A stretch of 20,909 nt of DNA from an uncultured Candidatus Poseidoniales archaeon (GTDB lineage: Archaea > Thermoplasmatota > Poseidoniia > Poseidoniales > Thalassarchaeaceae): assembly GCA_964645485.1 (NCBI GenBank), contig CAZXZO010000028.1, forward strand, positions 1 to 20,909, written 5' to 3'. Below, one piece after another: positions 8,548-9,345 of this stretch. Numbering within the stretch: the stretch's first letter is position 1; every line of letters begins with the position of its first letter. The notes beneath the pieces were generated by a model that saw only the letters and a list, made by a program, of their open reading frames with translations, searched no databases and was not told the DNA's origin. Both the position numbers and the translations under genes were made by a program.

Positions 8548-9345
8548 ATGAGCGCCAAACCGTGGTCTCCTTCTCATGTTGCAGCCCTTGCTTCAGCATA
8601 CACTGACTTGCGGATTTCAGGTGCTGTGAAACAGGAATTGGTCACATTACTAGTTGCCAAACTCAATGATGTTGTTCCTCGTATGGAACAAGAAACTCTT
8701 GCTCAAGATTCAACTCGAAAAACCCTAGACGACCCACAGCGAACTAGACTGGGCTTTAGTCGCACAAGAGGATTGATGATTGAACGCATTGATGCTGTTG
8801 ATTCAGTTAGCGCGGCTGCAGTCACTGCTGCTTGCGAAGAGTTAGAACTCTATTTGAGAGATGTATTACGAGCCTGTGAAACGGTCTGTACTAACCATTC
8901 GATGGGAACCATCAAGCCGCGTCATCTTGAAGAAGCGCTGTCAAATATTGGGGTGAGCCTACCAGATGAATCTCAAGATATTGAATCCTCACCAATTCAG
9001 TCAACTTCCGACCCCTTAGAATCTCTAGTTGGGGGAGGGGCGGGAGTAATCACTCCTGCATTACTTCGTCAAATGGCTAGAAAATTTGCTAACATGAAAG
9101 TTGAAAATGATGCCTTAGAAGAGTTGCTTGAACTTTACTATGATGAAGCAGGAACAATCCAGCATGAGATGAAAAAATCGCTCACGGGTGGAAACCCAGC
9201 TGAATTTGGTCCACAGTTAGATAAACTCGATGAATTGGCTAAAATGGGTTTCTTGAGCAGAACTCTCAAGTTAGCCGAAGAGCGGGCGAAAGCCAGTAAC
9301 TCCCGTTCAATAACTATCGATCATATCCTCAGTATTGACGTGTGA
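8548..9345 (+). CDS. Multi-histone-fold protein (apparently three tandem histone folds)
   Basis: Three segments match the HMf-type helix-loop-long helix-loop-helix pattern: SPSHVAALASAYT-DLRIS-GAVKQEL...-RKTL; LGFSRTRGLMIERI-DSVS-AAAVTAACEELE...-GTIKPRHLEEAL; ITPALLRQMARKF-NMKVE-NDALEELLE...-RSITIDHIL. Start ATG 8548 preferred (265 aa); in-frame ATGs at 8488 and 8461 overlap the peptidase. Confidence 0.72.
   Translation: MSAKPWSPSHVAALASAYTDLRISGAVKQELVTLLVAKLNDVVPRMEQETLAQDSTRKTLDDPQRTRLGFSRTRGLMIERIDAVDSVSAAAVTAACEELELYLRDVLRACETVCTNHSMGTIKPRHLEEALSNIGVSLPDESQDIESSPIQSTSDPLESLVGGGAGVITPALLRQMARKFANMKVENDALEELLELYYDEAGTIQHEMKKSLTGGNPAEFGPQLDKLDELAKMGFLSRTLKLAEERAKASNSRSITIDHILSIDV

Follow-up and report, generated by a model that had tools for sequence, protein, structure and literature searches.

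Among archaeal histones, the HMvA class of Methanococcales histones bridges DNA. In the case of Poseidoniales, multi-fold histones have been described in two surveys. Laursen & Luger (2026, Nat Commun, PMC13260811) assembled 130 sequences (median 262 aa, pI 5.2) as cluster 5, the 'acidic quadruplets', which are hosted by Poseidoniales and one related genome only and are always the sole histone. Their AF3 predictions for cluster 5 gave neither a tetramer nor wrapping, and the authors suggest that these proteins may not bind DNA. Schwab et al. (2024, Nat Commun, PMC11390915 supplement) describe a 'Poseidoniia double', a double histone with an unknown domain at its C terminus, which 'likely used to be a double histone fold'. 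Laursen & Luger equate it with cluster 5. The gene studied here is the only histone-fold gene of Poseidoniales.

The window, i.e. the whole stretch of DNA analysed, comprises 20,909 nucleotides. The features relevant to the gene are the following:

8548..9345, + strand: multi-histone-fold protein gene, an ORF of 265 aa with pI 5.02 and GRAVY -0.23
8563..8733, + strand: histone fold 1, with alpha1 at residues 8-15, L1 with Arg22, alpha2 at 25-53, L2 RKTL and no alpha3
8611..8619, + strand: L1 motif R22-I-S (motif definition from PMC13260811), the Arg being the predicted minor-groove residue
8749..8949, + strand: histone fold 2, with alpha1 at 71-78, L1 with Ser replacing Arg, alpha2 at 89-116, L2 with invariant Thr121 and alpha3 at 124-134; predicted to pair with fold 1 within the chain
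8953..9045, + strand: acidic linker of variable length (24-42 aa), low confidence in the model and dN/dS 0.15-0.26
9046..9342, + strand: C-terminal domain (CTD), with alpha1-L1-full alpha2, turn, connector helix and half alpha2-L2-alpha3; modelled as self-paired, with one L1-L2 bridge and without the DNA-contact signature
9142..9246, + strand: helical hairpin of the CTD, residues 199-233 round a GGNP turn, of near-fixed length and with dN/dS <= 0.03
7248..8495, + strand: M24 peptidase gene, upstream, a neighbour in 73/80 loci that remains where the histone gene is lost
9387..9686, + strand: FeS_assembly_P-like small gene, downstream, which abuts M24 in genomes without the histone gene

The ORF, its start codon and its motifs were found at 8548-9345, as the original prediction had placed them. 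Homologues begin at a Met matching that at 8548; the alternative start ATG 8461 was ruled out, as it overlaps the M24 gene. Searching for homologues gave 96 proteins at E <= 0.001, mostly full-length and with 39-96% identity. Among the nearest records (96-97% identical) are Ca. Thalassarchaeaceae MAGs in which the gene order is the same. Two contigs carrying the archaeal locus (L039, L084) are filed as Yoonia sp. and Deltaproteobacteria bacterium, and are probably mis-binned or mislabelled. Against eight close orthologues, dN/dS was 0-0.08 for fold 1 and 0.02-0.09 for both fold 2 and the CTD, the hairpin and linker values being those listed above. All folded parts thus stay at or below 0.09, and this codon-level constraint therefore indicates that the ORF is a real gene and that the CTD is not decaying.

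Pfam applied to the 265-aa protein alone matched just fold 2, weakly (E 0.013), whereas 48/59 family members matched PF00808 and PF00125 at E <= 0.1. The single protein had no phmmer match in the PDB, and Foldseek with either model gave no match at E <= 0.001. A PF00808 search of the window's own genome (82% complete) recovered one histone gene, together with a sub-cut-off match inside a 763-aa frame.

The gene is an orthologue of the Poseidoniales multi-fold histone of the two surveys, and the family is thus not new. The original prediction had suspected as much, and the comparison with published prokaryotic histone classes that it had proposed leads to the Poseidoniia double, that is cluster 5. 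Homology to cluster 5 is full-length, length and pI are close (265 aa against a median of 262, pI 5.0 against 5.2; family medians 265 aa and pI 5.25), the host is likewise from Poseidoniales and the gene is the sole histone gene of its genome. In addition, both have an N-terminal double histone fold and a CTD resembling a degenerate double fold, a trait also of the Poseidoniia double. In detail, the gene on DUJJ01000204.1 (locus L100), the representative contig of PMC13260811, is 42% identical over residues 1-264, and that on JAOMRN010000001.1, listed as 'Single 5', is 43% identical to the 265-aa protein.

The N-terminal part is modelled as a histone doublet. The AF2 model contains the five helices listed above for folds 1 and 2. 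Superposition of its residues 5-140 gave Z 12.3 and an rmsd of 2.9 Å over 129 aligned residues with 1F1E, the doublet of M. kandleri, and Z 12.2 with the Melbournevirus doublet. Profile-profile comparison with Thermoplasmatota singlet histones gave P=1e-5 for fold 1 and P=1e-7 for fold 2. Among solved single-chain histones, archaeal HMvA was the top match to every segment (E=7e-7 for fold 2, 0.016 for fold 1 and 0.12 for the CTD). The match to 1F1E bears out the intramolecular pseudo-dimer that had been proposed: in the model, folds 1 and 2 form an intrachain histone pseudo-dimer. Fold 1 is a histone fold as had been claimed; the truncated alpha3 attributed to it is replaced in the AF2 model by no alpha3 at all. 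The stretch that follows, residues ~140-166, is disordered in the model, acidic and variable, in agreement with the acidic linker first proposed.

The CTD had been considered an odd third fold that must pair in trans. Folded alone, it gave a confident compact monomer (pLDDT 84.7, pTM 0.73). Its elements are, in order, alpha1, L1, alpha2 (27 residues), a turn, two helices of 15 and 16 residues, L2 and a short alpha3, and strands are assigned at L1 as well as at L2. ESM Atlas models from four family clusters have the same CTD shape (TM 0.84-0.90), followed by histone doublets (0.73-0.75) and then AAA+ lids (0.59-0.65). The best structural match is again 1F1E, with 99 residues aligned between positions 4 and 145 across both folds (rmsd 3.9) at Z 8.3, values of 8-9 being only moderate for helical domains. 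AAA+ C-domains tie with 1F1E, the RuvBL C-domain superposing at 1.8 Å over 69 residues. Since AF2 and ESM Atlas both close the CTD on itself through the hairpin, as a compact self-paired domain, neither an open fold nor the need for a partner in trans is supported. Most likely, then, the CTD closes on itself via the conserved helical hairpin with no partner needed, this being a reading of monomer predictions, which can meet inter-chain contacts within one chain.

A possible, if rather unlikely, alternative is that the CTD opens at the hairpin turn to give a domain-swapped, handshake-like dimer, in which two doublets joined via flexible linkers would bridge DNA. In case of any such swap, hairpin 199-233 would be the hinge. 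The turn is shaped like the hinge of a domain swap, as in the relation between AAA+ and histones (PMC1847821), the hairpin is strongly conserved, and the CTD aligns to single histones (HMvA, TAF12) in two pieces. PMC11390915 gives multimer models, of unstated oligomer size, of two family members with ipTM 0.55-0.61, and the main text of PMC13260811 words the pairing of the C terminus as 'interchain', whereas the legend of its Suppl. Fig. 7 has the C-terminal part modelled as one chain. Against the swap stand the confident closed monomer models from two methods and a hairpin long enough to return the chain. A complex prediction with two CTD copies scored 0.16 against a mark of 0.42, which weighs neither for nor against pairing.

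To describe DNA-binding and tetramer signatures, conservation was assessed in 34 Poseidoniales-type sequences below 70% identity, or 41 with the divergent class described below. DNA-contact and tetramer residues were mapped in HMfB numbering. K4, R22, R65, R72 and R125 are invariant in 34/34 sequences, positions 28, 57, 58 and 74 are Lys or Arg in all 34, and T59 and T121 are kept in 41/41, divergent class included. By homology, most of the invariant basic residues would fall on the alpha1 and L1-L2 DNA face of the doublet. In the pseudo-dimer R22 lies opposite T121, giving one intact Arg-Thr site, and the other doublet site carries Ser. Altogether the RT pair (L1 Arg and L2 Thr) is intact at one of three sites and none is in the CTD, where the L1 Arg position is mostly Pro or Lys and the L2 Thr position is variable. 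In none of the folds does an Asp stand at +7 relative to the L2 Arg position (R-D clamp), and the HMf-type His/Asp/Leu tetramer set was likewise not found in the family sequences. Median net charges are -3 for fold 1, +2 for fold 2, -6 for the linker and -3 for the CTD. From these sequences we infer that the doublet still binds DNA and that the CTD does not. Because the four-helix-bundle stacking residues are absent, and in line with the published AF3 result (PMC13260811), no hypernucleosome should be formed. In the literature searched, no experiment on DNA wrapping in vitro or in vivo was found.

The gene was found in 94 of the 151 genomes of the order, with 72/74 in the inferred Poseidoniaceae, 2/2 in a second family and 19/74 in the window's own family, where 45 genomes across six genera have none. 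As the genome search can miss genes (PF00181 was missed in one closed genome), histone loss was checked by synteny. In four of the six gene-less genera (six genomes, one closed), M24 lies within ~130 nt of the FeS_assembly_P-like gene. This adjacency shows that several Thalassarchaeaceae genera with small genomes have lost the histone gene from its slot by deletion. The clean-deletion loci are L188, L189, L190, L191, L193 and L194 (G027, G007, G023, G019, G011 and G009, respectively), in small genomes of 1.3-1.6 Mb. In a fifth genus (g7), a SLOG cluster-4 (LDcluster4) gene occupies the histone slot (L187:7192-7749, - strand; L192:981-1508, - strand). Tentatively, given the missed PF00181, Alba had no match in the five synteny-checked genera (0/42) and HU was not found in the five genomes tested. 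With the histone gene deleted and no Alba match, DNA in those small-genome genera would therefore be packaged by other means. Strict co-occurrence of histone and Alba was rejected, as genus g17 has the histone in 10/10 genomes and Alba in 0/10, and g3 shows the reverse.

Outside the order, a divergent subfamily with 22-27% identity and the same architecture is present in 5/37 genomes of another Thermoplasmatota class, that of GCA_028279585.1, with genomes of 3.1-4.4 Mb, and also in metagenomes (loci of the subfamily: L132-L136, L103:5001-5789, L175:5001-5786 and L178:5001-5774). Therefore, the architecture is suggested to be older than Poseidoniales. In these members Asn replaces R22 in L1 of fold 1, L2 of fold 2 gains Arg/Lys, and the neighbours are unrelated (DnaK/DnaJ, SerRS/PurE, rhomboid). 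Separately, two other Thermoplasmatota genomes encode proteins of ~315 aa (L149:1492-2454, + strand; L170:751-1692, - strand) with a canonical histone doublet and a C-terminal domain of ~165 aa that has no Pfam match and is unlike the CTD of the Poseidoniales family.

Several neighbouring genes recur. The FeS_assembly_P-like protein (9387-9686, + strand) has a Cys-Pro-Cys-Cys motif and is nearby in 57/80 loci; its gene probably starts at ATG 9387, not at GTG 9342. An N6/N4 DNA methyltransferase gene (4262-5224, - strand), with no evident restriction enzyme beside it, lies less than 6 kb from the histone gene in 37/80 loci. A further gene (11344-12432, - strand) encodes a conserved 362-aa protein, ~62% identical across the family, which contains Cys-X2-Cys pairs and matches no Pfam entry; the gene is linked upstream to KsgA, DUF655, RpoF and L21e. 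A promoter and terminator scan stayed at chance level.

Codon use was ranked for the orthologue in another, closed genome (G003), where it reached the 68th percentile (95% interval 30-88), compared with a median of 98 for ribosomal proteins (leave-one-out), 91 for thermosome and the 57th percentile for Alba. This indirect measure argues weakly against a packaging protein of very high abundance. Regarding function, the reading that we favour, and which we regard as about an even call, is that of a dispensable protein whose DNA-bending doublet carries, on a tether, a histone-derived domain that pairs with itself and does not bind DNA; its role would be accessory, architectural or regulatory, without a nucleosome-like wrap. 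The N-terminal doublet would form the histone pseudo-dimer and would probably bind and bend ~25-30 bp of DNA without sequence specificity, contacting it by the one L1-L2 site with an intact Arg-Thr pair and by invariant basic residues arranged in a ring. The CTD, a histone fold or the remnant of a duplicated doublet that is closed on itself in the models and has lost the DNA signature, would probably serve on its acidic linker as a module for protein contact or weak self-association. The protein may be moderately abundant and act in chromatin as an accessory architectural or regulatory factor, and not as an essential bulk packager. A binding doublet is supported by the net acidity lying chiefly in the linker, with fold 2 slightly basic; speaking against it are the acidity of the whole protein, an Arg in just one of the two doublet L1 loops and the Asn at that position in the divergent subfamily.

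We consider it unlikely that the histone fold has been co-opted without any chromatin role, as a scaffold for proteins, lipids or small molecules comparable to the SOS histone domain or DUF1931 doublets. The acidic pI, histone signatures that are mostly lost beyond fold 1 and the lack of predicted wrapping (PMC13260811) would fit such a scaffold, as would a gene that is dispensable in whole genera and has housekeeping genes as neighbours. However, ~ten invariant Lys/Arg and both L2 threonines lie on the predicted DNA face in sequences down to 39% identity.

The origin of the CTD can be followed at the profile level. The CTD profile aligns to HMvA and TAF12 in two pieces, ~35 positions apart, with TAF12 positions 37 and 39 falling at 38 and 74 of the profile. 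The alpha2 break that the original prediction noted in the third fold thus exists, but spans ~35 residues instead of ~25. The front half of the CTD matches fold 1 (P 3e-6) and singlets (8e-6) and does not match fold 2 (0.14); the back half matches fold 2 (6e-5) and singlets (5e-4) and does not match fold 1 (0.2). These singlet matches in both halves support the predicted histone origin of the segment. The first half of what had been called an insertion, residues 199-216, is the in-register second half of a complete alpha2: it scores 7.6 bits against fold 1 in register (rank 2/159 windows; singlets 3.8). Residues 220-234 have no resemblance to fold 2. Going by sequence, the CTD is thus best described as one complete alpha1-L1-alpha2 unit, followed by a new connector helix and then by the back half of a fold. 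The evidence leans towards a duplicated, internally deleted doublet over an insertion into one fold. No intact four-fold ancestor was found among 41 non-redundant sequences; in all of them, two conserved CTD positions span 54-57 aa.

Under either origin, the chain has three L1-L2 sites, not four. Four complete folds in the literal sense were not found, the CTD having just one alpha1-L1 and one L2-alpha3. With its three alpha1-L1 and three L2 elements, the sequence is nearer to the predicted count of three than to the published name 'quadruplet'. This mismatch is a matter of naming and not of membership, because the CTD span is near-constant across the family. The disputed fold count then reduces to one testable point, namely whether the CTD is closed or swapped.

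A closed, AAA+-lid-like monomer has been proposed as the ancestral histone topology (Alva et al. 2007, PMC1847821). It is improbable that the CTD has reverted to this form and that its hairpin turn acts as a switch between closed monomer and swapped dimer; if true, a DNA-bending doublet would become a switchable DNA-bridging protein in one of the most abundant groups of marine archaea. That the CTD has no histone origin and is an AAA+ lid (C-domain) captured by a histone doublet is very unlikely. Lids of RuvBL, MCM, Lon and CbbX do superpose at low rmsd, and 19/59 members have weak Cdc6_lid matches (best E 0.0011). Against this reading stand the in-register profile matches to fold 1, singlets and fold 2, the histone doublets covering 94-99 residues against ~69 for most lids, and a motif common to lids and histones by ancestry (PMC1847821).

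Compared with known systems, the AAA+ lid shares with the modelled CTD two helix-strand-helix motifs, a hinge permitting intrachain pairing and a single beta-bridge (PMC1847821), i.e. the closed two-motif topology that the RuvBL superposition suggests. By sequence, there are weak Pfam lid matches and no ATPase domain in the 265-aa chain; the closed form here is apparently secondary from a histone, with a much longer hairpin. Nucleosomal HMf-type histones have an RT pair at each site, the R-D clamp and the four-helix-bundle stacking residues; here the RT pair is intact at one site of three, and the clamp and stacking residues were not found. A reading as H2A/H2B-like, based on PRHL and VG-A-A motifs, was ruled out as archaeal HMvA scores higher: fold 2 reaches 32.7 bits with HMvA against 28.6 with the best single H2A chain, and fold 1 has no match to H2B at E up to 10. 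Thus, in comparison with eukaryote-like H2B-H2A doublets, fold 2 is not closer to H2A, nor fold 1 to H2B. The Methanococcales bridging histones (HMvA, PDB 8BDK) are the best solved sequence match for all three segments, but have a single fold with an unrelated short C-terminal extension and lack the fused doublet. M. kandleri HMk (1F1E), which the N-terminal part and the CTD alike match best in structure, and the haloarchaeal doublets share two folds in one chain as a pseudo-dimer; they have no extra domain and both folds complete, whereas fold 1 of this protein is without alpha3 and there is no evident tetramer interface.

The closest relatives are the published members of the same family. 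In the case of the Poseidoniia double, our structural result agrees with the description in the Schwab et al. supplement, to which the segment test adds a fold-1-like CTD front and a connector helix not recognisably from fold 2. The name of cluster 5 implies four complete folds, whereas this chain has three alpha1-L1, three L2 and about three and a half alpha2 elements. Beyond the cluster 5 of PMC13260811, members in another Thermoplasmatota class, which may include the one related genome of that survey, and synteny-verified losses were found here and, together with the codon-use rank of the orthologue, are what this analysis adds for the family.
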